Shown one piece after another: positions 5,021 to 56,069 of a stretch of 64,000 nt of DNA (positions within the stretch are counted from its first letter, which is position 1; every line of letters begins with the position of its first letter). Under the pieces are notes generated by a model. The model was not told the origin of the DNA. It ran no database searches and saw only the letters and a program-made list of their open reading frames with translations. The DNA is from Candidatus Dojkabacteria bacterium. GTDB taxonomy: Bacteria > Patescibacteriota > Dojkabacteria > J137. The translations under genes and the position numbers were made by a program. The DNA lies in assembly GCA_040006935.1 (NCBI GenBank), contig JBDTVZ010000001.1, positions 359,772 to 423,771 on the forward strand, given 5' to 3'.

Positions 5021-5944
5021 TTAATTTTTAATTATTGAACAAATCCCATAACTTCCATCGTTATAAACAAGTTCGGCCTTTAGATCTAGTTTTGTAGCAA
5101 TTGCAGAAAATTCTTCGAAACCAGAAAGCTTTGAAAAATAGGGCAAATCAGTTTCCCCTGTTTTTAAACTTTTCCATTCCTGCTTTACAACTGGTGAAAT
5201 TCTAAAACAACAAAGTATTGTTCCCTTTTTATGGAGAATCTCTGAAAGTTTATTCATGAACTTTATCTCGGAATCTATAGGAACATAATTCCAAAACGCA
5301 TCTATGATGATAGTTTCGAAATAATCTTCTTTATACTTTGTTTTTAATATATCTGTAGTTTTAAAGCTAATTTTTTTATGATTCTCTAAAAATGGCAACT
5401 CGAGTTTGTTATTTACCTCTTTACTTAAATCGTGATAATGAACTTTCTTATACCTTTCGACTAACTGTGCAAGCAATTCAGGCGACGGAGTAGAGAGAAC
5501 TAAAGCTTTTCCACTTTTTGACCCTTTTGCATTCTGTAAAAAGAAATTTATTATTTCCTTCTTACCTTCAGAATAGGTCTTAATTTGAGCTCCAAAGGTC
5601 CTATTTCGAAAGATTTTCATCTTTTTGAGGATAAACTCGTAGTCAAAATTTTGATTGTCTCTGTAACGCTGTAATTCCAAACGCAAATTTTTCAATTTCC
5701 ACATAAACGCTTTACCTTTATTTTCAGTTGTTGAATCTATTGCAAAAGAATATGCTCTCTCAACTAAAGATCTCTCTAAATTCCTTGCAATTCGCATGTA
5801 TAATTTTAAATTAACAAGATCATTTAAATCTGCTGCGAGTTTGTATGCGAAAGCCTGAAATTCATGCCGAGCATGCTTTTTAGCTTCTTCAGGTTTAAGA
5901 AGATTATATTTTGAAAGAATATCTTTTGATGTAGTTATTGCCAT
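5021..5944 (-). CDS. hypothetical protein, possibly a class I methyltransferase-like fold
   Basis: Weak MTase-like segments (ALVLSTP..., ETIIIDAFWNYV...GTIL); low certainty. Confidence 0.45.
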   Translation of the reverse strand: MAITTSKDILSKYNLLKPEEAKKHARHEFQAFAYKLAADLNDLVNLKLYMRIARNLERSLVERAYSFAIDSTTENKGKAFMWKLKNLRLELQRYRDNQNFDYEFILKKMKIFRNRTFGAQIKTYSEGKKEIINFFLQNAKGSKSGKALVLSTPSPELLAQLVERYKKVHYHDLSKEVNNKLELPFLENHKKISFKTTDILKTKYKEDYFETIIIDAFWNYVPIDSEIKFMNKLSEILHKKGTILCCFRISPVVKQEWKSLKTGETDLPYFSKLSGFEEFSAIATKLDLKAELVYNDGSYGICSIIKN

Positions 5945-6812: not shown

Positions 6813-8339
6813 TTACAACCTATTCAATAACCTCACCAACTCTTCCTCAACACCAGTAAGCTTATAGGAGCTGAAGAACACAATAATTAACTTTTCCTTT
6901 CTTTTTTTAATTTCTGATTTTAAGAAACTAACTAATTCTGTATTCTCAATATGTACAGTATTTATACTCATTTTCACAAGCCTTTCTACCATGTCATTTG
7001 TTGAAACTAAACCAGGAGTAACTTCAGATAAATCTGGAATAATTACCAAATCTGATAGAGCAAAGCTGTCCGAATAAGCTTTTCTGAAAATTTCTAAATC
7101 ATTCGGACGTGAACCTGCATTTGGTTCGAAGATAGATATGATTTTATGCTCAGGATATTTTTCGTGAATTGTCTCTAATGAATTTTGAGCTCTATCTGGT
7201 GCAATTCCAAAGTCATCAATTACAATTAGATCCTCAAATTTATAAATATGTTCCAGTCTTTTTTTAACTCCATGGAATTCTGAAATATATTTACTTAGGT
7301 CTTTTAATGTTTGCGTTCCTTTTTCAACTAAGCTTTGAGGTAATCTATGGGCAGGTAAACTACATATCAAAATTACAGCTGCAAGTATGTTTTCAAGGTT
7401 ATAAGAACCTAAAAGCTCAGTTTTAAATCTTAAAATCTCAGACCCCTTCTCATTGCAGATCAAGTTTTCATCACCTTCTGAAGCTACGCTCCAACCTTCA
7501 TTCTTTAATTCCTTCATTTCTTCATTAAACTTGTATCTAATTACCTTACATTTCGCTGATTTTAGAACTTTATCAATATTTTTATCTCCTGATTTTGCAA
7601 TAATTACTCCGTCTTCAGGAACTAATTCCACAGCTTTTCTAAATTCTTCTACATAAAGTTCTTCTGTTGGGAAAATATCAAAGTGCTCCCAAGTTATTTT
7701 TGTGATGATTAGGTATTTTGGTTTATATTCTAGAAATTTTGCTTTTCCTTCAATTTCCTTATCGGGATTGTGATATTCATCACCTTCAATTACAGACCAT
7801 TTAGAATCTGTGATTTTTAATGAATCCTCAATATCTACAACGTCAGCACCAATCATGTAACTTGGATTTAACCCTAGTTTTTGGGAAAGGAAGGTAATTA
7901 GAGCTGTTGTTGTTGTTTTTCCAGCAGTACCAATTACGACTATAGACTCATCTTTGATTAAATACTCTTTTAGAATTCTAGAATATGGACGGATATCCAA
8001 ACCTTTTTTCTTTGCATAAAGATATTCTTTATTTTTAGTAGGCAAATGACTGATGAATAAGATCAAGTCAGGATCATTTGGAATTTTGACATTTGATATT
8101 TGATATTTGTCATTATTTAACCAGAAACTCTTAGTCAAATGTTCGAAATCAAAACCCACAACTGTATTAATTTTATTTTCTACTAATAAATCTGAAGCAG
8201 GCGGAAGATATTGATTATCTGAACCTGTAACAAACCAGCCCATGTTTTGGAATTCTTTTGCTATATTCGCAGTTGTTTTACCGCAAACACCGATTATATG
8301 TAGCCATTTTTTTTGCATAAATTTATTATTTAAGTACAT
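6813..8339 (-). CDS. murC: Mur ligase family protein (MurC/Mpl-like)
   Basis: N-terminal HIIGVCGKTT...GSD domain, central P-loop VIGTAGKTTTT, and Mur ligase middle and C-terminal regions. Confidence 0.75.
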   Translation of the reverse strand: MYLNNKFMQKKWLHIIGVCGKTTANIAKEFQNMGWFVTGSDNQYLPPASDLLVENKINTVVGFDFEHLTKSFWLNNDKYQISNVKIPNDPDLILFISHLPTKNKEYLYAKKKGLDIRPYSRILKEYLIKDESIVVIGTAGKTTTTALITFLSQKLGLNPSYMIGADVVDIEDSLKITDSKWSVIEGDEYHNPDKEIEGKAKFLEYKPKYLIITKITWEHFDIFPTEELYVEEFRKAVELVPEDGVIIAKSGDKNIDKVLKSAKCKVIRYKFNEEMKELKNEGWSVASEGDENLICNEKGSEILRFKTELLGSYNLENILAAVILICSLPAHRLPQSLVEKGTQTLKDLSKYISEFHGVKKRLEHIYKFEDLIVIDDFGIAPDRAQNSLETIHEKYPEHKIISIFEPNAGSRPNDLEIFRKAYSDSFALSDLVIIPDLSEVTPGLVSTNDMVERLVKMSINTVHIENTELVSFLKSEIKKRKEKLIIVFFSSYKLTGVEEELVRLLNRL

Positions 8340-16481: not shown

Positions 16482-18017
16482 ATGAGTTTTTTAACTACAA
16501 AAGCACCACAATTTCAAGAAAAAGTAAAAAATGCGCCTAAAATCCCCGGTTGCTACATCTATAAAGATAAAGATGGAGGAGTTCTTTATGTTGGAAAAGC
16601 TAAAAATTTAAAAAATAGAGTAAATAGTTATTTTAATAATTATTCAAAGCTTGAAATCCGAATCCAACAAATGTTAGATCAAGCTGAAGATATAGAACTA
16701 TACACTGTAGATAGTGAAGTAGAATCTATAATTCTTGAAACTAATCTTATTAAAAAGTATAAGACGAAGTACAACATTTTAATGCGTGATGATAAAACTT
16801 ATAGTTGGGTAATGTTTGAAAAACAAATCAAAGGTGTGAATGATTATCCTAGAATTAGGATTTTAAGAAATAAGGATAAAACAGATGAAGTAGCAGAATA
16901 TTTTGGCCCATATCCCGCACAAATGCCTTTGAAAAATATTTTAAAAAAAGTCCGAAAAGTATTTCCATATGCGAGTTGCAACAGAAGGTTAATTCAAATT
17001 ACAGAAGATCCAGTTCAAGTTGATACAAACAATCGAATTCCATGTTTGTATTATCATATTGGACTTTGTAAAGCTCCTTGCGCAAGTTTACAAAATAAAA
17101 AAGATTACATGCGTGACTTTAATAATATAAAAAAATTCTTTCAAGGCGAAAAAATTGATATCTTAAAAGAATTGGAAAAGAATATGAGTTTATACTCACA
17201 TGATAAAGATTATGAAAATGCTGCAAAAGTTCGAGATAAAATAAATGACATTAAATATGTCACTGCAAACATGGGAATTAGTAATGAAATTGATGATATT
17301 ACAGTAGACAATTTAAAAAATATTCAAAGAGAAAATGGACAAAAAGATTTGATTGAGAAATTAAAATTCCCGGAAGATAAATTGAAAAATCATAAAGATT
17401 TTAGAATAGAGTGTTATGACATCAGTAATATTCAAGGGACAAATCCAGTGGGCGCAATGACTGTAATGATAAATGGAGAAGTACGACCAGATATGTATAG
17501 AAAGTTTAGAATTAATTCAAAAGAAACTCCCGATGATTTTGGAATGCTCCAGGAAATGATGGAGAGAAGATTGAAATACCTGCAGACGGATAATGGAAAA
17601 TGGATAACGGATAACAGAAAATCGAATTCTGAAAACTCAAAACTCAAAACTCAAAACTCAGAAAATGACGAGTCATTTTCTACTAAGCCTGATTTAATAA
17701 TCATCGACGGCGGTAAAGGACAATTAAATTCAGTTTATTTAATTTTAAAACAATATAATTTACACACAGAAATTCCGATTGTAGGTTTAGCAAAGCGAGA
17801 GGAAGAAATTTTTAAAATGACCTACCAGTTTAAAGACGAGGATCATGTAGGAGATGAAAAAAATTTAAGATTGCAAGGGATTTCAAAATTTACAAGAATA
17901 ATGTTGCCAAGAAAATCTGAAGCTTTGTATATTGTACAAAGAATTAGAGACGAAGCACATAGATTTGGAATTACCTATCATAGAAAGCTTAGAAGCAAGA
18001 AGATGACGCTAACATAG
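16482..18017 (+). CDS. uvrC: excinuclease ABC subunit C, lacking the C-terminal (HhH)2 domain
   Basis: GIY-YIG N-terminus (GCYIYKDKDGGVLYVGKAKNLKNR), UvrB-interaction region, C-terminal RDEAHRFGITYHR. Confidence 0.85.
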   Translation: MSFLTTKAPQFQEKVKNAPKIPGCYIYKDKDGGVLYVGKAKNLKNRVNSYFNNYSKLEIRIQQMLDQAEDIELYTVDSEVESIILETNLIKKYKTKYNILMRDDKTYSWVMFEKQIKGVNDYPRIRILRNKDKTDEVAEYFGPYPAQMPLKNILKKVRKVFPYASCNRRLIQITEDPVQVDTNNRIPCLYYHIGLCKAPCASLQNKKDYMRDFNNIKKFFQGEKIDILKELEKNMSLYSHDKDYENAAKVRDKINDIKYVTANMGISNEIDDITVDNLKNIQRENGQKDLIEKLKFPEDKLKNHKDFRIECYDISNIQGTNPVGAMTVMINGEVRPDMYRKFRINSKETPDDFGMLQEMMERRLKYLQTDNGKWITDNRKSNSENSKLKTQNSENDESFSTKPDLIIIDGGKGQLNSVYLILKQYNLHTEIPIVGLAKREEEIFKMTYQFKDEDHVGDEKNLRLQGISKFTRIMLPRKSEALYIVQRIRDEAHRFGITYHRKLRSKKMTLT

Positions 18018-39765: not shown

Positions 39766-40581
39766 TTAATTATTAATTAATATAATCATTGTCCTCTCAT
39801 GACCATAATTATCATAATTACTTTCTCCTAATTTCTTATTCCATTCAATAAATTTGGTTTTATCTCCTGTGTTTATTAGTTTTTGAATTTTCTGTTGGAA
39901 GTCTGAATGATTAAATGTCCGTTCGAAACCATCTGAATAGAGAACTACAATATCTCCTTGTTCTAAATTCACTTCACCTGTTAATGCTCCATAACTACCT
40001 TCTTTGTTAGTATTATTCCTAAATTCTTTTCGAACTAAAGTTCTTCCTTTGGAAGTTTTCCAATCAAAATCTTTCAAATCTTTATTTGCGTCGCTGAAGA
40101 AATATTTTTCAAAAATTTTTACAGAATTAGGAGTTTCAAATTTCAAATCCCAATCTTGAGAAAATACTTTAATTGCACAATCTCCAATAACTCCCCAATT
40201 TAATTTATGATCTTTTATCTTCGCACTTACTGCGACACATGCCCAAAAATCGTTCTCTAGGTAGTCTGGATTAGGATTTTTTTCCTGATTCAACTCTTTA
40301 ACCTTTCTATTTCCAAACTTGAAAGATTCCTCAATTGAATGAGTTTTCGAATAGTTTAAAAATTCATTTACAAAAAGATTAGATGCGAATTTTGCAGGGC
40401 TTGGATTTGGGTAATGCTCTTTATTTTCTTGACTATTTATATGTTCTACCTTAGAAACTCCAATTGGATCTCGTGTGATTCCATCTGCTACACAGAAAGT
40501 ATCTTGATTTAAAGAAAAAGCATCTTCCTGAGGTTTTTCAGAATATTTAGAACCATCGAATTGAAATGAGAAAATTTTCAT
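39766..40581 (-). CDS. PP2C-family-like Ser/Thr phosphatase (tentative)
   Basis: EDAFSLNQDTFCVADGIT, VVLYSDGFER and C-terminal ERTMIILINN resemble PPM motifs. Confidence 0.45.
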   Translation of the reverse strand: MKIFSFQFDGSKYSEKPQEDAFSLNQDTFCVADGITRDPIGVSKVEHINSQENKEHYPNPSPAKFASNLFVNEFLNYSKTHSIEESFKFGNRKVKELNQEKNPNPDYLENDFWACVAVSAKIKDHKLNWGVIGDCAIKVFSQDWDLKFETPNSVKIFEKYFFSDANKDLKDFDWKTSKGRTLVRKEFRNNTNKEGSYGALTGEVNLEQGDIVVLYSDGFERTFNHSDFQQKIQKLINTGDKTKFIEWNKKLGESNYDNYGHERTMIILINN

Positions 40582-40589
40582 ATGTTAAT

Positions 40590-41825
40590 TTAAAGTTTTA
40601 ACAAAGTCTCTGCTTCTTTCTTAGAATGTACTAATTCAAATTCTCTTGGAGTTGCTGTTGTATAGATTGTTTGTTTTGTTCTAGCTTCAAATTCTTCAAA
40701 TTTTAAAGGTCTATTGTCTAGAGCAGATCTCATTCTAAATCCATAATCAACTAGATTTGTTTTCCTAGATAAATCTCCATTAAACATTCCTCCAACTTGT
40801 GGCACAGTAATGTGGGATTCATCTATAAAAGTTATGTGGTCATCTGGAAAATAATCTAATAGAGTAGATGGTGGAGTTCCTATTGCTCTTTTATCAATGT
40901 ATCTTGCATAATTCTCAATTCCTTTGCAGAAACCTGTTTCTTCGAGCATTTCCATATCGTAATTTACTCTTTGATTTAACCTGGAAGCTTCAATCATTTT
41001 TCCTGCATCGTTAAAAGCTTTGACTTCTTTTTCCAAATCTTCTCGTATTATTCCAATAGCGTTTTTCAATTTTTCTTCAGGACTGACGTAATGTTTTGCA
41101 GGATAAATTGTAATTTTTTCTACCTTATCAACTAATTCCCCACTAATTGGATTAATAATTCGGATAGTATCTAATTGGTCTCCAAAAAATTCCAATCTAA
41201 CAGCAACATCATCAGAAGTGGTTAAATTGATATCAATGGATTCTCCTCGAACTCTGTAAGATCCAGTAGCAAAATCATTTGTCCTTTCGTACTGCATGTC
41301 TCGCAATCTTGCTAAGATTTTTTCTCTATTAAAATCTTTCCCTACTTCTACTTCCATGCTCATTGCTTGGTAATCTTCTGGATTTCCTAAACCATAAATG
41401 CAACTCACTGTTGCAACAATAATTACATCTTTTCTAGATAAAAGCATTTGTGTTGCAGAGTTTCGGTATCTTTCAATTACTTCATTTATATCTGAATCTT
41501 TTTCAATGTACAAATCTCTCGAAGGAACGTAAGCTTCGGGTTGATAGTAATCGTAATAACTTACAAAGTATTCAACTGCATTTTCTGGGAAAAATTCTTT
41601 AAACTCCGAATAGAGTTGTGCTGACAATGTTTTATTGTGGGATAAAATTAGAGTTGGCCTTTGAATATTTTGAATAACATTCGCCATTGTAAAAGTTTTA
41701 CCTGTACCAGTTGCTCCAATTAAAGTTTGGTGTTTCATTCCTACTTCTAGACCTGCAGATAAAGTCTCTATTGCTAAAGGCTGGTCACCATCGGGTTTAT
41801 AGTTGGAATGTAGTTTAAATTTCAT
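40590..41825 (-). CDS. uvrB: excinuclease ABC subunit B, N-terminal 411 aa only (domains 1a/2/1b with DESH); RecA-like domain 3 and C-terminus absent
   Basis: GDQP...GATGTGKTFT, FVSYYDYYQPEAY, DESH present; ORF stops where helicase motifs IV-VI should follow. Confidence 0.8.
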   Translation of the reverse strand: MKFKLHSNYKPDGDQPLAIETLSAGLEVGMKHQTLIGATGTGKTFTMANVIQNIQRPTLILSHNKTLSAQLYSEFKEFFPENAVEYFVSYYDYYQPEAYVPSRDLYIEKDSDINEVIERYRNSATQMLLSRKDVIIVATVSCIYGLGNPEDYQAMSMEVEVGKDFNREKILARLRDMQYERTNDFATGSYRVRGESIDINLTTSDDVAVRLEFFGDQLDTIRIINPISGELVDKVEKITIYPAKHYVSPEEKLKNAIGIIREDLEKEVKAFNDAGKMIEASRLNQRVNYDMEMLEETGFCKGIENYARYIDKRAIGTPPSTLLDYFPDDHITFIDESHITVPQVGGMFNGDLSRKTNLVDYGFRMRSALDNRPLKFEEFEARTKQTIYTTATPREFELVHSKKEAETLLKL

Positions 41826-41862
41826 GAGGTAATTATATCATTTATACGGACTTTACACTGAG

Positions 41863-41930
41863 TGCGCAAATCTACATCTCCTTACACCTAAAGGTGTTCG
41901 TCGTGTATCTTTGGGCCATCCGTTTACTCT
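41863..41930. repeat. family D element copy
   Basis: Matches 28193-28250. Confidence 0.6.
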
Positions 41931-42095
41931 CCTGGCATCCAGCAATCTGAGATGTGGCCCTATTGTCCGCCTGCCCTCCCGTTAATCGGGAGCGAGCAGG
42001 TTGGAAGAGCAGGAGAGAGAAGGATGATTTAATAATATTGTGCATAAACCATAGTTAGCAGTATAATTAAAGAATACATTTTAAATACGGTAAAA

Positions 42096-42521
42096 ATGAT
42101 TGCAATGAGTACTTTTGATGAAGGAGCAGAGTTGACAGAATTTACACCTGAAGAAGGAGTTATCAGACAATTTGAACAATTCGCACAGTATGCAGATGAG
42201 TTGGTAAAAATATTACAGAATCAACAATCTCAGAGCACAGACTCAGAAATACTTGTAAAAAGCTTAACCCCTAACAAACGAACCTTCGATTTAACTGACT
42301 ATCCCAATATTATAACAATGGATAAGTTAAATGCTTTTGCCGATGACACTGGAACGGGTTCTTATTTAAAAGGAAGAGAGTTTAGGAATGCATTAAGAAT
42401 TCTAGGTGGGAAATACAGTCTTGATTTCAAAGAACTTTATAAATCTTTTGCACCATTCTTTGCAATAAATAGCAACGCAAGTCATAATAACGAATACATC
42501 TTTTTTGATCCAAGATCTTAA
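42096..42521 (+). CDS. hypothetical protein, translationally coupled to the downstream kinase-like gene
   Basis: Stop/start overlap ATGA. Confidence 0.45.
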   Translation: MIAMSTFDEGAELTEFTPEEGVIRQFEQFAQYADELVKILQNQQSQSTDSEILVKSLTPNKRTFDLTDYPNIITMDKLNAFADDTGTGSYLKGREFRNALRILGGKYSLDFKELYKSFAPFFAINSNASHNNEYIFFDPRS

Positions 42522-43624
42522 TGAATCCTCAAGATTTCGAAAGTTTACAAGGACCTGAAAAATCTATAATTAATAGCGAACAAGCTAAATTACACGCAGT
42601 CAGCTTCTTACAAGAAATTTTCACAGAACCTAATCAAGTTTTTATTGCAGATCCAGATGTGTTCTTTTATAAAAAGGAATATAAAGATAGGGATAAAGTA
42701 GAGGTTGGCGTCTTCTCAGTAGGTATTAATCTAGAAATTGATGGCTCTGATAACGAAATAGTTCATTTAATAGAAAAAACCACAAATCCAGAAATTGCAA
42801 ATTACCTCAATAATAAAATAATTATAGCTAGAAGATTAAGAGATATTTTTAATCGAAAAGGTATTGAGTTAGAAGATGAAACAATCACAATTCAGGAGTT
42901 AAGAAATATTTGTGGCTCGGAAATTCCTGTAAGAATGCTAATGTACTTATTTGATACAACAGCAAGAGGTGAAGTTAAGAAAGAAACAATAGATTCTTTA
43001 TTAAACGGCGAAATTACTGCAAAAATAGAGCTTGCTTATAAAAGAATTCATAATGCGAAACGAGCTATCGCAAACGAAATAGAAAATTATGAAATTTTCT
43101 ATCATAAGGGATTCAATACTTTCTGTGCGTTAAAAACTATTGCAAGAGATCAAGCTGAAGAGAGTGCGAATGACAATGCTTATTTTATATTCACCTTGAA
43201 TGAAAGAAACTTAATAGTATTAGAAGAGGAAGGTAATTTTTTCTCAGAAGAAAATGGTGTTTTTGAATTATTACTAAAAGAGTTATCACGTATGTATTTA
43301 TCAGAACTTACACACGGAGATTTACATTTTAGAAATGTTGGTTATTTAAGGGAAAAAATTAAAAACATAATGCTCTTTGATTTAGTTAGATCTACTTCCG
43401 ATGGTGTTAATCATCCTACAAGAATTCAAAATGATTTAATTCTTTTTAGAAATACCGTAATCGTCATGTTAAGAAACTCATTTGATATTGATAAGAATTA
43501 CGTAAAGTCGCTTATCGATCAATTCTTAGAGGAAATAAAACCAATTTTTGAAAATAATCAAAGTAATTACGATAGTATATTGGATAGTTTTATAAGTATT
43601 TACGAAGAGATTGATTCAAAATAA
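42521..43624 (+). CDS. protein kinase-like fold protein (APH/choline-kinase-like catalytic loop HGDLHxxN)
   Basis: LTHGDLHFRNVGY catalytic-loop-like motif followed by FDL. Confidence 0.5.
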   Translation: MNPQDFESLQGPEKSIINSEQAKLHAVSFLQEIFTEPNQVFIADPDVFFYKKEYKDRDKVEVGVFSVGINLEIDGSDNEIVHLIEKTTNPEIANYLNNKIIIARRLRDIFNRKGIELEDETITIQELRNICGSEIPVRMLMYLFDTTARGEVKKETIDSLLNGEITAKIELAYKRIHNAKRAIANEIENYEIFYHKGFNTFCALKTIARDQAEESANDNAYFIFTLNERNLIVLEEEGNFFSEENGVFELLLKELSRMYLSELTHGDLHFRNVGYLREKIKNIMLFDLVRSTSDGVNHPTRIQNDLILFRNTVIVMLRNSFDIDKNYVKSLIDQFLEEIKPIFENNQSNYDSILDSFISIYEEIDSK

Positions 43625-43634
43625 TTTCATTTCT

Positions 43635-44312
43635 TCATTTTTCATTCTTTAATTCAGTGACGCATCCGCAGACTTTACTCCATTCTGGATCATTAATGCA
43701 TTTAGGATTTCGTGCAGTGCACAGGTATCTTCCATGAAAAACTAATCTTAAAGCCCATTCATTCCATTCTTTTTGTGGAAATAATTTCATTAAATCCTGT
43801 TCTACTTTTACCGGATCGTCTCCTCCATCACTTAAACCTAATCTTCTTGAAGTTCTTAAAACATGTATGTCTACAACAAAACCTACTGGCAAAATTCCTT
43901 TTTTATGTGTAAACCACTCATTTAGAACAACATTCGCAGTCTTTCTCCCTATACCAGGAAGTTCTGTTAATTCTTCCATTGTAGCCGGAACGTTACTGTT
44001 AAATTTATCTCTCAACATTTGAGCTAACTTTACTAAATTCCTTGCTTTAGTTTTATAGTAATTAATTCCAGTAACATATTTTTCAATTTCAGATGGTTTT
44101 GCATTTGCTAAATCTTCAATATTTTTATACTTAGCAAATAGAGCAGGTGTTTTTTTATTTACTGTAGTATCAAGCGTTTGTGCAGAAAGCATTACTGAAA
44201 CAAGAAGCTGAAATGCAGATTTATGATGGAGCGGTGTTTCGACAGTTGGATAGTCCCGAATTAATAATTCTTTAATCTTTTTTAATTTAGCTTCAGAAAT
44301 CATAACAATCAA
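43635..44312 (-). CDS. nth: endonuclease III
   Basis: HhH-GPD LPGIGRKTANVVL and [4Fe-4S] loop CTARNPKCINDPEWSKVCGC. Confidence 0.85.
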   Translation of the reverse strand: MIVMISEAKLKKIKELLIRDYPTVETPLHHKSAFQLLVSVMLSAQTLDTTVNKKTPALFAKYKNIEDLANAKPSEIEKYVTGINYYKTKARNLVKLAQMLRDKFNSNVPATMEELTELPGIGRKTANVVLNEWFTHKKGILPVGFVVDIHVLRTSRRLGLSDGGDDPVKVEQDLMKLFPQKEWNEWALRLVFHGRYLCTARNPKCINDPEWSKVCGCVTELKNEK

Positions 44313-44429
44313 CTAGTAACCAGTAACTCGCAACTACTTATTATCGCTAAAAATATCTGAAAAGAGAAGATAGTTTAAAAAATACGAAGTTTCAGGATAT
44401 AATAAAGTATTAAATTTTAAAAGATAATT

Positions 44430-45083
44430 ATGCCTGATGATGCTGATAATATTGAAAACCTTAGTAATAGACCACAGCCAGGAGTAGATCCAATAGTTAT
44501 TGGAAGAGCAATTGGATTACTAAATCAAGATGGATCACACATGCATAAAAAAATAACTGTTGATGAAAAAATGAGTGAAAAAATTGAAGACAGGATGAAA
44601 GCAATCAGAAGAAAAATTAGAGTTGGAGGATGGGATTTACTTGATGAAATTAATCCTCAAGAGGGAGCAAGAAGAAAAGAGTTGAAAGAAAAAAGTAATA
44701 ATGAAGGCTTAACAAAAGCCGAGCAAGGAGAGTTGAGCACTCTCACAGAAAAATCTAATTCACTTGGTATCAAAGCATTAAGTCATGCTGAGTTATATTT
44801 TTGGGTAACATTGAATAGTTTTTTAGGTTTTAAATTCAACACACATTCAAGAGAAGCTATTGCCAAAGAGTTGAAAAACCCCAGTGTTTCGAGAGTCGAA
44901 GATTTAGTTGAAGATTTTATTCGTCACTTAGACTTAATCAGCTTGGTAAGAGGTTTGAGAGATGCAGAAGAACAAGGTGGTGTAGCTGGAGTAATAGATA
45001 CTTTAAGACCAGAACCACCAGTCCCTGGTGAATATCCTGATGATGAAGATGATAGTGGAGATATGTCTGAACCTATTATTTAA
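44430..45083 (+). CDS. hypothetical acidic protein
   Basis: ORF only. Confidence 0.45.
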   Translation: MPDDADNIENLSNRPQPGVDPIVIGRAIGLLNQDGSHMHKKITVDEKMSEKIEDRMKAIRRKIRVGGWDLLDEINPQEGARRKELKEKSNNEGLTKAEQGELSTLTEKSNSLGIKALSHAELYFWVTLNSFLGFKFNTHSREAIAKELKNPSVSRVEDLVEDFIRHLDLISLVRGLRDAEEQGGVAGVIDTLRPEPPVPGEYPDDEDDSGDMSEPII

Positions 45084-45092
45084 ATAATTATT

Positions 45093-45842
45093 ATGAACTT
45101 AAAAAATAAAACAGTTTTAGTCACAGGATCCTCAACCGGAATTGGTAGAGCAATTGCAGAAGCATTTGCTAAAGAAGGTGCAAATGTAATTTTAAATTAT
45201 AGAAATAATAAAACAGAAGGTGAAAAAGTGCTTTCAGAATTAAAAAATTACGAAGGGAAATCTACTCTAATTCAAGCAGATATGGCTAAAGAAGAAGATG
45301 TAAAAAGACTATTTAAAGAAATTGAAAAGGGATACGGAGTTCTTGATATTTTAGTTAATAATGCAGGAGATGCACAAGGAATTGATGTTCTAAGTTCCGA
45401 TATTAAAGACTGGGAATATCAAATGGATAATAATTATTTAAGTGCAGTAATGGCATCTAGAGAGTTTTTAAAAATGAAAGGTTCGGCAGAATTAAGAAAG
45501 ATTATTAATATTTCTTCAGTTTATGGATTTGATGATAAATGTCATGCAGATTATATGGCTTATGGTGCATCCAAAGCTGCGATTAATAGTTTAACTAAGA
45601 ATATGGCAAAAAAATTTGCTCCAAATGTTTTAATAAATGCAATTGCACCAGGATATGTAATGACACCGCATTGGGGAGAAATGAGTGGAAAAGAAGTAAA
45701 AGAAAACGCAGATCAACAATTAATACAAAGATTCATTGAACCCTCAGAAATAGCAGAGGGAGCTATCTTCCTTGGGAAAAATGATTCCATGACTGGAACA
45801 ATAATATTAATGGACGGAGGGATAAGTTTGAAGACAGTTTAG
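45093..45842 (+). CDS. SDR-family oxidoreductase (FabG-like)
   Basis: TGSSTGIGRAIA, NNAG, YGASKAAINSLTK (YxxxK). Confidence 0.85.
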   Translation: MNLKNKTVLVTGSSTGIGRAIAEAFAKEGANVILNYRNNKTEGEKVLSELKNYEGKSTLIQADMAKEEDVKRLFKEIEKGYGVLDILVNNAGDAQGIDVLSSDIKDWEYQMDNNYLSAVMASREFLKMKGSAELRKIINISSVYGFDDKCHADYMAYGASKAAINSLTKNMAKKFAPNVLINAIAPGYVMTPHWGEMSGKEVKENADQQLIQRFIEPSEIAEGAIFLGKNDSMTGTIILMDGGISLKTV

Positions 45843-45989
45843 AATTTAAGTCCTGTACATATTTAGAGAATTTATTATAATTATGGGACTTCGATGTCAT
45901 TGCGAGGAACGAAGTGAGGAAGCAATCTCACACAAATTAGTAGAGACGATTGAGCTACTCATCTGAAAACTGATGACTCCAAATTATGT

Positions 45990-46061
45990 GCTAGGGTAGC
46001 TCAGCTTGTAGAGTACTCGCCTGAAGAGCGAGGTGTCGACAGTCCCAGCCGCCCTCTGGCA
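45990..46061 (+). pseudogene. degenerate tRNA-Phe(GAA) copy with disrupted T-arm
   Basis: Same acceptor, D and anticodon arms as the tRNA-Phe at 47364-47439, but the T-stem has 2 mismatches and a 6-nt loop. Confidence 0.6.
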
Positions 46062-46139
46062 CGATAAATTTACTTCAATTAATTCCTCTCCAGAATTATT
46101 ATTTATGATAGACTTTCGTATATTTATTAAATAAATAAT

Positions 46140-46355
46140 ATGCATCAGAATAATTTATTAGGTTCACTACCAAATCAAGTCAGAGTAGACTTAGGAGCGA
46201 CTGTTCAAGAATTAATTTTTGAAAAGTTAAAATTATTAACAGATAATGGCCTATCAATAAAGGATGCCGCTAAGATTATCGAAGACTCTCTACGAAATAT
46301 AGTTGGCGAAGAAGGGGATTTAAGCAAATATCTAATCGAAAATAGCGATAAATAG
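46140..46355 (+). CDS. hypothetical small protein
   Basis: ORF only. Confidence 0.35.
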   Translation: MHQNNLLGSLPNQVRVDLGATVQELIFEKLKLLTDNGLSIKDAAKIIEDSLRNIVGEEGDLSKYLIENSDK

Positions 46356-46411
46356 AAATAAGAATTAGAGAATATAAACTAAGAATCTCATTTAAAATAA
46401 AAAAGACACAA

Positions 46412-46485
46412 TGAGCGATGAGGGATTCGAACCCCCGACCCCCTCGGTGTAAACGAGATGCTCTAGCCAGCTGAGCTAATCGCTC
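46412..46485 (-). tRNA. tRNA-Val (anticodon UAC)
   Basis: Cloverleaf with GAGCGAT/ATCGCTC acceptor, anticodon loop UUUACAC, T-arm GGGGG-TTCGAAT-CCCTC. Confidence 0.85.
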
Positions 46486-46605
46486 ATTGTATTCCTTCTA
46501 TTTAATTTTTAATTCTTTCTTACTCGGTGTAACCTGTTCACCCACCTTAGACCGATACAATACTATAATCTGTATCAGTGGAGTGATACAGATTATAGCA
46601 GAACT

Positions 46606-47286
46606 TTACAGAGTTTCAAAAGAATTAAGAATGGCATTAAATTCATCTTTATTAGTACTACCATTCTCTAAAGAAATAGTTACATAAATTGTATTACCTG
46701 TAAATTTACTTGTAAAAGAATACTGAGCTTGGTGGAATGAAAGCCCACTTAAAGTACCATCCCATTCTATTTTACACACTTCTTGACCATTAACTGTTAC
46801 TACAGCACTTGTAGCAGATTGTGGGTCAACATTTAAACTATCCTTAATACTACCAATTAGTTCTGTTTTATAACTTGAACAACCTAGTGAAGTTGCTTCT
46901 ACTGTTTCATTGGAAGAATAGACATTCATATTATCGTTAAAATCACCAGCAACATTTAAACTAGGATCTTTACTGTAAACATAAATAATATCTGCAGAAT
47001 CATCTAATACAAATTTTTTAGGGTAAGAGAAAGTAAATTCAAATGAATCTTTTCCATCATATTGAAGAGTATTTGAAGTTGTAGGTTGAGGTTGTGGAAC
47101 TGGTACTGGTGCTGGAGTAACAATAGGTGGTGTCGCACAAGGACCAGTAGTTGAACTAAAGAATGGACCTTTGTAACTACAGGTTCCATTAACTTCAAAA
47201 TGACCAATGAATGCAAATCCTGCTAGCACACTACAACAACAGCACAGGGGGATTAATATTAACAAAGCTATAACTACTTTCTTCAT
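46606..47286 (-). CDS. secreted hypothetical protein (signal peptide, Cys-rich N-terminus)
   Basis: N-terminal MKKVVIALLILIPLCCCCSVLAG. Confidence 0.5.
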   Translation of the reverse strand: MKKVVIALLILIPLCCCCSVLAGFAFIGHFEVNGTCSYKGPFFSSTTGPCATPPIVTPAPVPVPQPQPTTSNTLQYDGKDSFEFTFSYPKKFVLDDSADIIYVYSKDPSLNVAGDFNDNMNVYSSNETVEATSLGCSSYKTELIGSIKDSLNVDPQSATSAVVTVNGQEVCKIEWDGTLSGLSFHQAQYSFTSKFTGNTIYVTISLENGSTNKDEFNAILNSFETL

Positions 47287-47363
47287 AAAAAGAGGTAAAA
47301 ATTAGATTTAGAGAATTATATCAGAATTAGAAATGAAGGGGATAAAACAGAAGTTTGATAATT

Positions 47364-47439
47364 TGGTGCCAGAGGGCGGACTCGGACCGCCGACACCTCG
47401 CTCTTCAGGCGAGTGCTCTACCAGCTGAGCTACCCTAGC
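47364..47439 (-). tRNA. tRNA-Phe (anticodon GAA), CCA encoded
   Basis: GCTAGGG acceptor, D-arm GCTC-AGCTGGTA-GAGC, anticodon loop CUGAAGA, T-arm GGCGG-TCCGAGT-CCGCC, 3' CCA present. Confidence 0.85.
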
Positions 47440-47507
47440 AACCAAATGCTGATAATTATAATAAAATTATCCAGTATACACAATACTAAAATCATTTTCA
47501 GACTCTT

Positions 47508-47969
47508 TTATTGCTCCCCCAGAAGACTTTTCAATTGCACACAAAAGGCTTCGAGTTCTTTTACAATATCCCTATCCTTTTGACCCATAAATGTAAAAGT
47601 TCCATTTGTGTCTATATTTTTATTGATGTGAACTGTAAGAGCACAGATAAAATCAAATAGGTCTTTAGCAGCGGCACTGCCATTTTTTAAAGCTAAAACA
47701 CTGAAAGTAGGATCTGAAGATTTAAAATCATCTAGGAGTTTCTTTACAGTATTAAGCCACTTTTTACTCTCAAACCCTCCTAGCGAGGATACATTTACAG
47801 CTTGAATTAACATTTCTAAACTTCCTAGCGAGGCTATTAGCTTTAATTGGTTATTATCGAAATTACCTAATGTCTCATCAGTATTTAAAATTACAGTAGT
47901 CTCTTCGGGTAGAACGTCCACTAATTCTGTACTGGAAGAGTCTGCATCTAATGTGTCAGCCATAAACAT
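47508..47969 (-). CDS. hypothetical protein
   Basis: ORF only. Confidence 0.45.
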   Translation of the reverse strand: MFMADTLDADSSSTELVDVLPEETTVILNTDETLGNFDNNQLKLIASLGSLEMLIQAVNVSSLGGFESKKWLNTVKKLLDDFKSSDPTFSVLALKNGSAAAKDLFDFICALTVHINKNIDTNGTFTFMGQKDRDIVKELEAFCVQLKSLLGEQ

Positions 47970-48256
47970 ACTTTAATTTATATAAGATTACGATGTTACC
48001 AAATTATGGTAATTGTGTACACTTTTATCTACTAATATATGAATACAGAGAGAGGGTAACATCTCTTAGCTGAAATAACAAAAGAGTATAATAGATGGGC
48101 TAAAGCCAATAGAAATCTTGAAATTCGCAAGCTCACCTAGATTTCTAATTGTAAAGTCTTACAAGAAATCAAAAAGATGTAGATTAATATAAAAGCTAGT
48201 ATAATAAGTTGAGATTCAACTATTAACTAAGAACTCTTAACTATTAACTAATTTCA

Positions 48257-49537
48257 ATGTCTTCATTAGTAATACAAGGTGGTCATGCTTTAAACGGAAC
48301 CGTTGTTCCAATGCCTAACAAAAATTCGATACTTAAGCTTATTCCTGCAGCTGTTTTAACAGATGCTCCAGTTACATTTCACAATGTTCCAAAAAGCTCT
48401 GCTGTACGTATTCTATTACAGATTTTTAGACAACTTGGTGGGAAAGTAGCGTATCTAAAAGGTGATTCAATAAGATTGGATGGTGCAGGAATTAATACTT
48501 CAGCAATTAACGAAGAACTAGCTGGGAAAGAAAGAGCTTCTTTTTTATTTTTAGGACCTTTGGTTTCTAGATTCGGAAGTGCTTCCATTAGAGATGGTGG
48601 AGGATGCAAATTAGGGAATAGACCATTAGATACGATGTTTCAAGGTTTGGAAGGACTTGGAGTTCAAGTTGATAAAGGTGATGGATACAAGATTAAAGCT
48701 AAAGAATTAAAAGGTGCTCATATTTGGTTAATTGAAGCTTCAGTTACAGGAACAGAAAATTTAGTATTAGCCGCAGTTAAAGCAAAAGGAATCACAACAA
48801 TTTACAATGCAGCTTGTGAGCCGCACACTCAAGATTTATGTAATTTCCTAGTTTCTGTTGGAGCAAAAATTGAAGGAATTGGAACAAATAAATTAGTTAT
48901 TGAAGGAGTTGAGAACTTAAGTGGAGGAGAGTGGACAGTAATTTCTGACCATGTAGATATCGGTGGATTGATTGTTGCTGCATTAGTTACGGACGGTGAA
49001 TTAACAATTAAGAATGCAATCCCAGAGCACATGACTCAAATTATTAATTACTTTAGAAAGCTAAATGCCAAGATTACTATAAAAGGGAAGGATATTCATA
49101 TTCCAAAAGATCAGGATTTAAAAGCATTGCCAAATATTAAAGGTGATATGGATAAGATTAACGACCTGCCATGGCCAGGATTTCCTGTAGACTTGATTCC
49201 ACAGGCATTAATTCTTGCTTTAAAAGCTAAAGGAAATATTAGAGTTTATTCTAATTTATACGAAGTTCAATTAATTGAATTGTTTGCAGAATTGTTTAAG
49301 ATGCAAGCAAAAATGACAATGGCGAATCCTAATATGATTTTGACCCATGGAGCAACTGAATTTGTTGGAACAAAAGTAAATGCTTCTACAATTTTACAAT
49401 GTACACATGCATTAGTACTTGCAGGACTGGCAGCAAGAGGAAAAACAACAGTAGAAAATGCAGATATTATTTATAGAAGATTCCCTGAAATTGTTCAAAC
49501 TTTAAATGCACTTGGTGCGAAAATTGAGAAGGCTTAA
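48257..49537 (+). CDS. murA: UDP-N-acetylglucosamine 1-carboxyvinyltransferase
   Basis: EPT-family N-terminus LVIQGGHALNGTVVPMPNKNSILK and catalytic-loop region GGCKLGNRPLD. Confidence 0.9.
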   Translation: MSSLVIQGGHALNGTVVPMPNKNSILKLIPAAVLTDAPVTFHNVPKSSAVRILLQIFRQLGGKVAYLKGDSIRLDGAGINTSAINEELAGKERASFLFLGPLVSRFGSASIRDGGGCKLGNRPLDTMFQGLEGLGVQVDKGDGYKIKAKELKGAHIWLIEASVTGTENLVLAAVKAKGITTIYNAACEPHTQDLCNFLVSVGAKIEGIGTNKLVIEGVENLSGGEWTVISDHVDIGGLIVAALVTDGELTIKNAIPEHMTQIINYFRKLNAKITIKGKDIHIPKDQDLKALPNIKGDMDKINDLPWPGFPVDLIPQALILALKAKGNIRVYSNLYEVQLIELFAELFKMQAKMTMANPNMILTHGATEFVGTKVNASTILQCTHALVLAGLAARGKTTVENADIIYRRFPEIVQTLNALGAKIEKA

Positions 49538-49538
49538 T

Positions 49539-50297
49539 ATGAGCACACTTACTGTTAAGATTGATGATAAGGATTTGAAATTTACCACATACTCTTTTGG
49601 GGATATACTTGCAGGTTTTAGTCTAGGAAAGAATGTGAACTACCACCCTTTATCTGATATAAATTTACAACTAACTTCAAAAGTTCTAAATAAACTAGAT
49701 TTATCAGGATCTTTCTTAAAAATAAAAACAGAGCATAAAGATAAAATATTAATTAACTCTGACTCTGAGGAAGCAGATGCAATTATCTCAACATCAGGAA
49801 AACCAATAATTCTTTCTCCAGCCGATTGTATAGGACTAATCCTTATTGATACAAAATCAAATTCTTATGGTCTTTGCCATGTTGGAAGAGCAGGTGTTGG
49901 ATACAATATTGTTGAAAAATTTATTAATAAATTCCTTGAAATAATAGATTCAACTACATACGAAAATAATCAATTTCAATTTATAATTTCTCCTAATATC
50001 GACCACGAGAATTACCCTCATAACGATGATGCTTTTATCTATACTGATAGTAAGCCTAATTGGTGGTTTAACAACCAAGAGTTGCTAAATAAAAAGGATG
50101 GTACATTTTTTCCTAATCTTGAAGGTGCTGTTATTAAACAAATCAAAGAGAGTAAATTAAAAGACGACTCTTATGAAATTATCTCATCAGGTTTAAGTAC
50201 GTTTAAGGAAGATATGCATTCTAATGCCAGAGATACGCATGAAAGTATTAAGGAGAAAAGAAGAAATTTAGTATTTGTTGGTCACTTAGATAGATAA
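49539..50297 (+). CDS. PgeF/YfiH (DUF152) family protein
   Basis: SPADCIGLILID....GLCHVGRAGVG matches the ADCxP...HAGWRG core; start set at MSTLTV, 1 nt after the murA stop. Confidence 0.6.
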   Translation: MSTLTVKIDDKDLKFTTYSFGDILAGFSLGKNVNYHPLSDINLQLTSKVLNKLDLSGSFLKIKTEHKDKILINSDSEEADAIISTSGKPIILSPADCIGLILIDTKSNSYGLCHVGRAGVGYNIVEKFINKFLEIIDSTTYENNQFQFIISPNIDHENYPHNDDAFIYTDSKPNWWFNNQELLNKKDGTFFPNLEGAVIKQIKESKLKDDSYEIISSGLSTFKEDMHSNARDTHESIKEKRRNLVFVGHLDR

Positions 50298-50600
50298 TAT
50301 CCTAATCTGGTATAATTCGAAATAATTAAATTTATTTCATGATTCGCACCAGAAAAATTCTCCGACATAAATATTTGGATTATTCAAACAATCGAAAATA
50401 TTTCATTACAATTTGTACAAAATACAGAATTAATCATTTTGGTGAAATTAAAAATAACAAAATGTTTTATTCTGATATTGGATTGATTGCCAGAGAATAT
50501 TTGGAAACAATTCCCAGGCATTTTATATTTTGTGAAATTGATTCGTTTGTTGTTATGCCGAATCATGTACATATGGTTGTGGTGTTGAATGAATATGTAG

Positions 50601-50620
50601 GGGTCGCCCATGGGCGACCC
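50601..50620. repeat. REP-like palindrome type 1 (GGGTCGCCCATGGGCGACCC) inside the tnpA coding sequence, preceded by TATGTAGG
   Basis: Perfect 20-bp palindrome, ~75% GC in a ~33% GC gene. Confidence 0.8.
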
Positions 50621-50645
50621 AATGATTTTGGTATGACGAATAATC

Positions 50646-50670
50646 GGGACGCCGATCGGCGTCCCCTACA
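50646..50670. repeat. REP-like palindrome type 2 (GGGACGCCGATCGGCGTCCC-CTACA) inside tnpA, inverted relative to the type 1 copy
   Basis: Same stem as the GTAGGGGACGCA...TGCGTCCC elements at 6179, 16206, 28034. Confidence 0.8.
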
Positions 50671-50902
50671 ATTACAAAATCCGATGAATGTATCAATACC
50701 AAAAATAATCAATCATTACAAAGGGTCTGTAACGCGTATTGTCCAAAATGAATTCAATAATTTTGATTTCCAATGGCAACGTTCATACCACGACCATATA
50801 ATCCGCAACGACCACGAATTAAACCGAATTCAAATTTACATAAACCACAACATATTAAATTGGAACAAAGATATTAATAATAAATAATGATAAAATCTTT
50901 CT

Positions 50903-51928
50903 ATGCAAAAATTCCAAAACCACAACATTAAAGAATTCAATACATTCCACATTGCAGTAAATGCAAGGGAATTTATCATTATCGAAAATTCCTCTGAGCT
51001 CATAGAACTTTATAAAAAAAACCTCTTCAAAAATAAATTCTTTATTTTAGGGTCAGGAAGCAATTTGCTTTTCACAAAGGATTTTGATGGTGCAATTATC
51101 CAAATAGATAATCGCGGAATCAAAGTAGTTAACGAAACACCTGAGCATATATTTGTAGAATCAGAAGCTGGGGAAGATTGGGATGAGTTTGTAGGTAAAA
51201 CAATGGAAATGAATGCATATGGATTAGAAAACCTATCTTTAATTCCCGGATCTGTAGGAGCATCCGCGGTTCAAAATATTGGAGCTTACGGAGTTGAGGC
51301 TAAAGATTTTATAGAGTCTGTTGAGTTTTTTCATTTAGAAGATGGGAAGTTCCATAAAGCTGTTAACTCCGAGCTAGGATTCAAATATAGAGATAGTATT
51401 TTTAAACACGATCTTAAAGATAAAGCCATTGTTACAAAAATTACTTTTAAATTAAATAAGAAACCGGCATTAAAACTTGAGTATGCCGATGTATTGAAAG
51501 AGATAGAGAGTAGAGGACTAGATAAAAACAAACTTCATCCGAAAGAATTAAGAAATCTGATTATCGATATTAGAAATAATAAATTAGAAAACCCAAAACT
51601 GATCGGCAACTCCGGTAGTTTTTTCAAAAATCCAATAATATCTAACGATAAAATTGATGAATTAACAAAAGATTACCCAAGTTTAAAATCAAATTATGTT
51701 ACCGATTCTGAATCTAAAATTTCTGCAGGGTGGCTGATAGAGCAAGCTGGGTGGAAAGGATGGATATCAATCGATAAACAGTATGGAGTATCACCTAAGC
51801 ACGCCTTAGTTATAGTAAACTATTCCAATGCAAAAGGAGTGGACATACTAACTCTTGCTAAACACATTAAAAGCTCTGTTAAAGAAAATTTCGGAGTAGA
51901 GTTAGAGGAAGAAGTAATTATAATATAA
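50903..51928 (+). CDS. murB: UDP-N-acetylenolpyruvoylglucosamine reductase
   Basis: FAD-binding FILGSGSNLLF and C-terminal MurB domain (AGWLIEQAGWKG, KHALVIVN). Confidence 0.85.
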   Translation: MQKFQNHNIKEFNTFHIAVNAREFIIIENSSELIELYKKNLFKNKFFILGSGSNLLFTKDFDGAIIQIDNRGIKVVNETPEHIFVESEAGEDWDEFVGKTMEMNAYGLENLSLIPGSVGASAVQNIGAYGVEAKDFIESVEFFHLEDGKFHKAVNSELGFKYRDSIFKHDLKDKAIVTKITFKLNKKPALKLEYADVLKEIESRGLDKNKLHPKELRNLIIDIRNNKLENPKLIGNSGSFFKNPIISNDKIDELTKDYPSLKSNYVTDSESKISAGWLIEQAGWKGWISIDKQYGVSPKHALVIVNYSNAKGVDILTLAKHIKSSVKENFGVELEEEVIII

Positions 51929-55847: not shown

Positions 55848-56069
55848 GTTTAAAAGTTAAAATGTTTAAACGTTAAAAAGTTGAATAACGTTAGAACATT
55901 GTAACCATTTAACATTGAAACGATTTAGAGCAGTTAGCTCAGCTGCTCCAGAGATTCTTAAATGAGAACGATCCGCCTTGGGCGGAGAAGTTCGAATTTT
56001 AGAAGATCTTAGCACAAGGATATGAGCTACTAGAGGTGAAGTTTTAACAAATGGAAGGTGATAGTAATA

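Follow-up and report, generated by a model that had tools for sequence, protein, structure and literature searches.

A degenerate, inverted copy of tRNA-Phe as the probable relic of a small inversion in a Dojkabacteria genome

RESULTS

Gene content of the EndoIII-MurA interval

Between the genes for endonuclease III (EndoIII) and MurA, the genome of a Candidatus Dojkabacteria bacterium carries two copies of tRNA-Phe(GAA) in opposite orientations, one of which is intact, while the other, here called psiPhe, is degenerate. We analyzed this interval as part of a window of 64,000 nucleotides (the whole stretch of DNA considered here, with a GC content of ~32%), and all positions refer to this window unless a relative is named. 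The order of genes and open reading frames (ORFs) in the interval is EndoIII(−), p217(+), SDR(+), psiPhe(+), ORF71(+), tRNA-Val(−), Cys-rich(−), tRNA-Phe(−), p153(−), MurA(+). As detailed below, comparison with relatives points to an inversion of the segment from tRNA-Phe to tRNA-Val, and psiPhe is probably the relic of one of the two repeat arms that bounded it.

For the comparison, the EndoIII-to-MurA intervals of about 12 Dojkabacteria were gathered with MurA as the anchor and the SDR oxidoreductase as a second anchor. The loci are coded L0xx, and arrangements are given with MurA on the plus strand. Two of the relatives were found in the GTDB genome collection and are Dojkabacteria there. 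The window and its relatives share 70 to 84% identity in MurA, and even the closest relative reaches only 83 to 84%. Usable SDR orthologues were obtained from a protein search and not from a scan of metagenomes, which returned only SDR relatives of 45 to 49% identity in unrelated contexts without tRNAs. Exact look-ups of the Cys-rich, ORF71, and MurA proteins of the window, aimed at structural variants in other assemblies, gave no match.

The intact and the degenerate tRNA-Phe

Transfer RNA genes were called with ARAGORN and the Rfam tRNA model (gathering score, 29 bits), and copies of tRNA-Phe were counted within the window. The intact tRNA-Phe(GAA) is located at 47364-47439 on the minus strand; it is called by ARAGORN, it scores 60.5 bits with Rfam, and its minimum-energy fold is a cloverleaf. 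psiPhe is located at 45990-46061 on the plus strand and is not called by ARAGORN. Its Rfam score of 36.3 bits (E 4.5e-5) exceeds the gathering score but is far lower than the 60 to 72 bits of all ARAGORN-called tRNAs of the window region and the scanned loci. The two copies form an inverted repeat of 60 nt with 92% identity plus 14 nt with 100% identity, which BLAST reports as 74 nt with 91.9% identity (E 7e-21). A first-pass annotation, made from the letters of the window, had described both copies, the broken T arm of the degenerate one, and an inverted repeat of ~72 bp between them, and all of this is confirmed here. It had also regarded the acceptor, D, and anticodon arms of the two copies as identical. 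This is correct for the acceptor and anticodon arms, which are intact in psiPhe, but not for the D arm, which differs by G18→T in the loop and C25→T in the stem.

In total, psiPhe differs from the intact copy at seven positions (G18T, C25T, G50A, G52A, G57C, loss of T60, and C75G), leaving tracts of perfect identity of 17, 6, 24, 1, 4, 2, 14, and 1 nt, the longest of which is 24 nt. The changes affect bases that are invariant or paired, namely, G18 and two T-stem pairs, and the length of the T loop, and none of them is compensated. The invariant G18 is replaced by T (U18 in the RNA), and T60 is lost, which affects the elbow contacts between the D loop and the T loop. In the T stem, 2 of the 5 pairs are A·C, and the T loop has 6 nt, not 7; the Rfam alignment likewise shows two non-standard T-stem pairs and one missing T-loop base. 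The minimum-energy fold of psiPhe is a rod, and those of the intact copy and of the tRNA-Phe of L051 are cloverleaves. The first-pass annotation had left room for psiPhe being a functional tRNA of another identity; it does not rescore as such with Rfam, and its anticodon arm is unchanged. Furthermore, neither a second tRNA-Phe nor a remnant of one was detected in L001, L036, L037, L038, L044, L051, L052, and L056 (Rfam at E ≤ 5; Smith-Waterman alignment against shuffles), and the positive control from L037 was recovered in the same search. Because of its low score, the missing ARAGORN call, the non-cloverleaf fold, the uncompensated changes, and the absence of a counterpart in relatives, psiPhe is, as far as its sequence tells, a pseudogene and a non-functional relic.

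A duplicated promoter

The similarity of the two copies is not confined to the tRNA genes. Upstream of psiPhe, a promoter-like site, P_L (45844-45892, plus strand), contains the motif TGTACA-16-TATAAT at 45854-45881 and is the orthologue of the tRNA-Phe promoter of L051. A paralogue of P_L, the site P_R (47444-47492, minus strand), is located upstream of the intact tRNA-Phe. Without gaps, P_L and P_R agree at 32 of 49 positions, which is the highest-ranking non-self match among 127,904 positions of the window, the next best having 28. Over the ~45 nt that were compared, the identity of P_L amounts to 81% with the L051 promoter and to 71% (gapped) with P_R. Since the two promoters are mutual best matches in the window, the duplicated unit consists of promoter plus tRNA. 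A sensitive BLAST search for homology between the flanks of the two copies, and between these flanks and those of relatives, revealed nothing beyond chance except the promoter.

P_L and psiPhe are separated by ~100 nt. This leader (45893-45989, plus strand) contains an insertion of ~55 nt that is absent from L051, as seen in an alignment with L051 and L052. Inside the insertion lies one half of a palindromic repeat, GTCATTGCGAGGAACGAAGTGAGGAAGCAATC, at 45895-45927, and a full palindrome of this type, with a length of 92 nt, is found just upstream of MurA in L036 (9752-9843). The palindrome may be an element similar to repetitive extragenic palindromes (REP) or miniature inverted-repeat transposable elements (MITE). 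The idea that its fragment is present in several copies in the window was rejected, as it occurs once.

Two arrangements among relatives and an inverted segment in the window

In most of the relatives fetched, the EndoIII-MurA interval harbors tRNA-Phe(GAA), tRNA-Val(UAC), or both, in several cases along with a homologue of the Cys-rich gene, and these genes are found in two arrangements. The "forward" arrangement, that of the closest relatives, is present in L051 and L052, which read EndoIII(−), SDR(+), Phe(+), CysRich(+), Val(+) ... MurA(+), with a GIY-YIG gene and an OmdA-like gene following tRNA-Val in L051. It is also present in L036, which reads Phe(+), CysRich(+), Val(+) and has hydrolase genes in place of SDR. 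The "reverse" arrangement is that of L001, L044, and L045, with EndoIII(−), Val(−), CysRich(−), Phe(−) ... MurA(+), and that of L037 and L038, with Val(−) ... Phe(−) adjoining MurA and no Cys-rich homologue detected between them. The MurA tree places the window as sister to L036 plus L051 and the "reverse" arrangement in the outgroups.

Alignment of the window with L051 gave an inverted BLAST match of positions 46366-47440 to positions 5526-4394 of L051 (1,160 nt, 65.6% identity, E 5e-60). UvrB, EndoIII, SDR with ~50 nt past its stop codon, psiPhe, and MurA all align to L051 in the same orientation, and the one tRNA-Phe of L051 matches both copies of the window. The segment is likewise inverted relative to L036, and the same applies to the tRNA-Val match in L056. 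These alignments show that the 1.1-kb segment from tRNA-Phe to tRNA-Val is, at the level of the assembled sequences, inverted relative to L051; inverted repeats are present at both of its ends, and close relatives with the same flanks carry it in the opposite orientation. A comparison with related genomes, which the first-pass annotation had proposed as a check, has hence revealed a synteny break at 46366-47440.

The flanks assign each tRNA-Phe copy to a position. The SDR gene of the window (45093-45842, plus strand; Pfam adh_short, E 3e-48) encodes a protein with 69% identity to the SDR of L051 and L052, where the orthologue precedes tRNA-Phe(+), and the DNA from 45090 to 45895 aligns with L051 3555-4355 in the same orientation with 75% identity. 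tRNA-Phe starts 88 bp after the SDR stop codon in L051 and L052, and psiPhe starts 148 bp after the stop codon of the orthologous gene. Because it shares the SDR flank and the promoter with the L051 gene, psiPhe is shown by these alignments to be the positional orthologue of the L051 tRNA-Phe. The intact copy aligns in the same orientation to the tRNA-Phe genes of L037 and L038, which adjoin MurA, and is by the same token their positional counterpart. This comparison shows that relatives have their single tRNA-Phe at one or the other of two positions and that the window has a copy at each of them.

Substitutions shared by the two copies

The sequence of tRNA-Phe is identical in seven relatives (L051, L052, L036, L037, L001, L044, and L055). 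The intact copy of the window departs from this clade consensus at positions 52, 55, 57, 62, and 67; it has C55 (U55→C, giving the T loop UCCGAGU), G57, a G52-C62 pair, and U67, and all five differences are located within nt 52 to 67. U55 is nearly universal in tRNAs. psiPhe carries C55, C62, and T67 in common with the intact copy, which therefore requires either common descent of the two copies or an exchange of sequence between them after the lineages had split. In other words, judging from these three positions, the two copies arose in the lineage of the window or exchanged sequence within it. A search of viral contigs for the variant 3′ part of the tRNA-Phe of the window gave no match.

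The enclosed genes and their surroundings

The inverted segment (46366-47440, minus strand) contains a native module of tRNA-Phe, the Cys-rich gene, tRNA-Val, and a GIY-YIG stub. tRNA-Val(UAC), at 46411-46486 on the minus strand (called by ARAGORN; Rfam, 65.2 bits), is identical at 76 of 76 positions to the gene of L051 and L052. The Cys-rich gene (46606-47286, minus strand) encodes a membrane-anchored protein of 226 amino acids that matched no Pfam family above cutoff. It adjoins these tRNAs across the clade, with homologues in L056 (45% identity), L051 and L052 (43%), L036 (38%), L044 (29%), L001, and L002. Between its stop codon and tRNA-Val, we observed a perfect hairpin of 15 bp with a loop of 6 nt, CTATAATCTGTATCA/TGATACAGATTATAG, at 46563-46598, and a strong promoter-like site on the minus strand (46619-46592) overlaps it. 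At the far end of the segment, the GIY-YIG stub comprises eight codons (MRFLVYIL*) at 46368-46391 on the minus strand. The stub corresponds to the first eight codons of the small GIY-YIG nuclease gene that follows tRNA-Val in L051; the remainder of this gene and its OmdA-like neighbor are missing from the window. An ORF of 71 codons, tRNA-Val(UAC), and an ORF of 226 codons for a Cys-rich protein had been annotated between the two tRNA-Phe copies in the first pass, and all three are present as described. The view that they make up a cassette had to be abandoned: the enclosed tRNA-Phe, Cys-rich, and tRNA-Val genes are a native module that is conserved in most of the relatives fetched, and the GC content is unremarkable, staying between 0.30 and 0.375 across the interval, as in the surroundings, with no step.

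The flanks of the interval are conserved as well. EndoIII, on the left (43635-44312, minus strand; Pfam HhH-GPD, E 1e-23), aligns in the same orientation to L051, L036, L037, and L038, and MurA, on the right (48257-49537, plus strand; Pfam EPSP_synthase, E 8e-60), is the anchor named above. Three pieces of DNA are specific to the window, namely, p217, the ORF71 spacer, and p153, and none of their ORFs matched a phage or defense family in PHROG or PADLOC. The orphan ORF p217 (44430-45083, plus strand), between EndoIII and SDR, also had no match in Pfam, and in an exhaustive search with HMMER, only p217 itself and two weak partial matches were returned from 1.84 billion representatives. It is absent from L051, where the gap between EndoIII and SDR amounts to 122 bp. 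The spacer downstream of psiPhe (46062-46365, plus strand; ~300 nt) contains the orphan ORF71 (46140-46355, plus strand), for which searches of billions of proteins yielded no homologue but itself and tblastn gave no match in any locus. At the DNA level, nothing significantly similar to the spacer was found elsewhere; the stretch that follows psiPhe gave no convincing alignment with the spacer between tRNA-Phe and the Cys-rich gene of relatives, and mirror-image remains of a larger inverted duplication, that is, remnants of the Cys-rich gene or tRNA-Val, were not found in 46062-46410. The ORF p153 (47508-47969, minus strand), between tRNA-Phe and MurA, had no Pfam match and no tblastn match in any relative.

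Other scars at the locus

Closer inspection of the interval in the window and its relatives revealed further irregularities at tRNA genes. In L037 (9714-9840), a fragment with the 5′ 18 nt of tRNA-Phe is located upstream of tRNA-Phe and is followed by a copy (96% identity, 47 nt) of the leader of a tRNA-Val(GAC) that is 7 kb away (16989-17073). The first 17 nt of this leader copy recur exactly upstream of the tRNA-Val(GAC) of the window (55945-56069). The sequences suggest that distinct tRNA loci with the 18-nt D-arm sequence in common may have recombined. L055 has a direct 5′ copy of tRNA-Phe with a length of 12 nt, ~80 nt upstream of position 10457. Just upstream of its tRNA-Val(UAC), L051 carries a direct copy of the 5′ 25 nt of the gene (5322-5346), and a remnant, TTACACCGAG, is found upstream of the tRNA-Val of the window (~46520-46545). 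L056, with 84% MurA identity to the window, reads CysRich(+)-Val(+)-OmdA-MurA at 7020-8085 and lacks a tRNA-Phe within 9 kb. On its left, a ferric reductase gene takes the place of EndoIII and SDR, and the break lies ~10 nt after the expected end of tRNA-Phe. The only transposase-like gene of the window in 39766-51928 is an ORF of 182 codons at 50339-50887 on the plus strand (Y1_Tnp, IS200-like transposase, E 5.5e-11), which is ~3 kb away, between MurA/p263 and MurB. A counterpart with 40% identity is found at the corresponding site in L038, which suggests a tyrosine transposase that is domesticated or associated with REP elements.

DISCUSSION

In sum, we propose that psiPhe is what remains of one arm of an inverted tRNA-Phe duplication and that this duplication formed the boundaries of an inversion, and we assign this reading a probability of about 0.7. 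In this clade, a native unit of promoter, tRNA-Phe, Cys-rich gene, and tRNA-Val sits between EndoIII and MurA in either of two orientations. According to our model, the lineage of the window would have carried inverted copies of promoter plus tRNA-Phe, one at each end of the Cys-rich gene and tRNA-Val, and recombination between these copies would flip the enclosed segment, which is the difference between the window and its closest relatives. The present similarity of the arms, with no perfect tract above 24 nt, is marginal for homologous recombination; as long as the two tRNA-Phe copies were functional, the arms were presumably identical. The first-pass annotation had interpreted inverted tRNA duplications as scars of integration or inversion. 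The second half of this interpretation is supported by the alignment with L051, and the first half is not, since the enclosed genes are native and no integrase was found within ~6 kb.

The order of events is a separate matter, and the one that we prefer is offered tentatively, at slightly less than even odds. An inverted copy of promoter plus tRNA-Phe would have arisen beside SDR before the split from the clade of L051 and L036. The sister clade would then have flipped the Cys-rich gene and tRNA-Val by recombination between the arms and subsequently lost the right copy, and the lineage of the window would have kept the older orientation of the segment. There, gene conversion would have spread the three shared substitutions between the arms, after which the left copy, one of the two being redundant, would have decayed, acquiring U18, the two A·C mismatches in the T stem, the shortened T loop, and the insertion between promoter and gene. 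The higher similarity of the orthologous (81%) than of the paralogous (71%) promoter pair fits this order, although the numbers are small. A duplicative re-inversion within the lineage of the window would be another possible order, but we consider it unlikely.

Several points weigh against the proposed inversion between tRNA-Phe arms. Two copies occur in this one genome only, and since the relatives show no remnant of a second copy, the preferred order requires that the sister clade lost its copy cleanly and that gene conversion took place here to account for the shared substitutions. Intermediate states are unsampled because the closest relative is so distant in MurA. The promoter comparison is too small to date the duplication, and the origin of the first inverted copy is not explained by the proposed mechanism.

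It is imaginable, albeit rather improbable, that the process is a recurrent one, in which promoter plus tRNA is duplicated in inverted orientation and the copies then act as recombination arms that flip adjacent genes, and that the window represents its two-copy intermediate, a state that is rarely seen. In that case, tRNA genes and not insertion sequences would be the main drivers of micro-inversions and of the shuffling of gene order in the very small genomes of the Candidate Phyla Radiation (CPR), which are poor in repeats, and the C55 tRNA-Phe would be a by-product of a phase of redundancy and gene conversion.

A different origin of the two copies, to which we give a low probability, is a hybrid interval. 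Two strains with opposite orientations of the module would have recombined by a homologous crossover in MurA and an illegitimate one just after tRNA-Phe, and one of the two orthologous tRNA-Phe genes brought together would now decay. Indeed, both orientations exist in the clade, the left half of the interval is L051-like and the right half is oriented as in L037 and L038, and a hybrid would explain why high similarity is limited to tRNA plus promoter. However, the donor would need to have the three substitutions that are specific to the window. Furthermore, the right half shares the phylogenetic affinity of the left half, because tRNA-Val is fully identical to that of L051 and the Cys-rich protein is closest to those of L056, L051, and L036 and not to those of the relatives with the opposite orientation, and this weakens the hybrid explanation.

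About equally improbable is a mobile-element scar at tRNA-Phe, in which psiPhe would be a remaining attachment site and the copies would enclose or adjoin decayed cargo DNA. In a sister species, the tRNA-Phe at this very locus is in active use as an integration site: L043 and L046 carry a phage-type large serine integrase of 626 amino acids (Pfam Resolvase and Recombinase; phrog_95, E 3e-102), whose ORF runs antisense through tRNA-Phe (L043 4183-6064; L046 1-94). The corresponding empty sites are found in L044 and L045 (5987-6064), whose MurA is identical to that of L043 and L046, and the 3′ end of the tRNA is the exact point at which the occupied sites diverge from the empty ones. About 10 samples of the sister species are occupied and about 10 are empty. 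The far end of the L043 element is located beyond the fetched flank, and a search for its integrase in viral contigs gave no match. In L037 and L055, tRNA-Phe is preceded by partial copies of its own 5′ end; these and the orphan ORFs p217, ORF71, and p153 around the copies of the window would also be in line with such a scar. However, the repeats left by integration at a tRNA are direct and partial, and the copies of the window are inverted and full length. The absence of an integrase, already stated in the first-pass annotation, extends to remnants nearby: Pfam searches of all ORFs in 39766-51928 found none within ~6 kb, and tblastn with the L043 integrase matched only the tRNA antisense in the window. 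Neither a compositional shift nor phage or defense families were observed, and psiPhe retains the host promoter and an SDR flank orthologous to L051. As the repeats are inverted and full length, the genes between them native and conserved, and an integrase missing, we do not regard the locus as an integration remnant. Irrespective of this, the tRNA-Phe in the EndoIII-MurA interval is, from the loci compared here, an apparent hot spot of rearrangement in Dojkabacteria, because a serine-integrase element of a sister species, partial tRNA copies in relatives, and the breakpoint of L056 are all found there.

Less probable still is a working device. The repeats could continue to invert the segment and so form a switch, or psiPhe could serve as a functional tRNA-like RNA, for example, as a processing signal for the SDR-ORF71 transcript. 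Consistent with such a role, psiPhe scores above the Rfam gathering score, has a good promoter-like site upstream, and keeps unbroken acceptor and anticodon arms. On the other hand, it is not conserved in any relative examined, its invariant positions are hit without compensation, and it does not fold into a cloverleaf. A flip would not switch expression, as the Cys-rich gene would lie behind a promoter-tRNA-Phe unit in both orientations; moreover, Pfam revealed no invertase gene among the neighboring ORFs, and the arms share no perfect tract longer than 24 nt. Finally, an assembly artifact, in which the contig was mis-joined across the repeated tRNA of two co-occurring strains, is hardly credible even though the source is a metagenome-assembled genome and the contigs of several relatives end just upstream of MurA: the copies differ at 7 positions and in their flanks and are hence not a collapsed repeat, a mis-join at a shared tRNA would not give two copies with an inverted interior, the inactivating changes of psiPhe are not expected in the only tRNA-Phe of a strain, and the contig of the window spans 516,739 bp.

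The locus provides an example, at the level of sequence, of gene-order change in a CPR bacterium, with the endpoint of a 1.1-kb inversion pinned to a tRNA gene, because one genome has tRNA-Phe at both alternative positions and one of the copies is decaying. It will be of use for annotating and assembling Dojkabacteria genomes, and it is not a new kind of system. In the rice chloroplast, a tRNA pseudogene that is a chimera of two different tRNA genes was found at the endpoint of an inversion (Hiratsuka et al. 1989, as cited in PMC12371153), and the rearrangement is ascribed there to recombination involving tRNA genes, with endpoints in tRNA-rich spacers. The window likewise has a degenerate tRNA copy at the boundary of an inverted segment. 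Here, unlike in that case, both arms consist of tRNA-Phe plus promoter, and the inverted segment, found in a CPR bacterium, has a size of only 1.1 kb. Further prokaryotic cases are the inversions mediated by rRNA operons and insertion sequences. In Pyrobaculum oguniense, an inverted repeat of the glutamate dehydrogenase gene provides an inversion bounded by an inverted gene duplication (PMC3558965). As in the prokaryotic inversions at inverted duplications, copies of a native gene flank a segment that is seen in both orientations among relatives, presumably as a result of homologous recombination between the arms. The arms in the window differ from these in being very short (~76 nt plus promoter), with one of them decayed, and the two orientations were observed only when species were compared, not inside one population. 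With integrative elements and genomic islands that target tRNAs, the locus has in common a tRNA at the edge of a variable interval, and the same tRNA-Phe hosts the L043 element; however, the window is free of an integrase, direct partial repeats, and foreign composition, and the enclosed genes are native. Hin/Gin-type switches and shufflons are site-specific invertible segments, and in these, too, inverted repeats flank a short segment. Unlike in the Hin/Gin switches, no invertase gene was found among the neighboring ORFs of the window, its repeats are whole genes, and a flip would have no apparent on/off effect. Set beside these systems, the scar is of a kind that is already well known, and the locus is a new example of it in an unusual host, neither a cassette nor a device.

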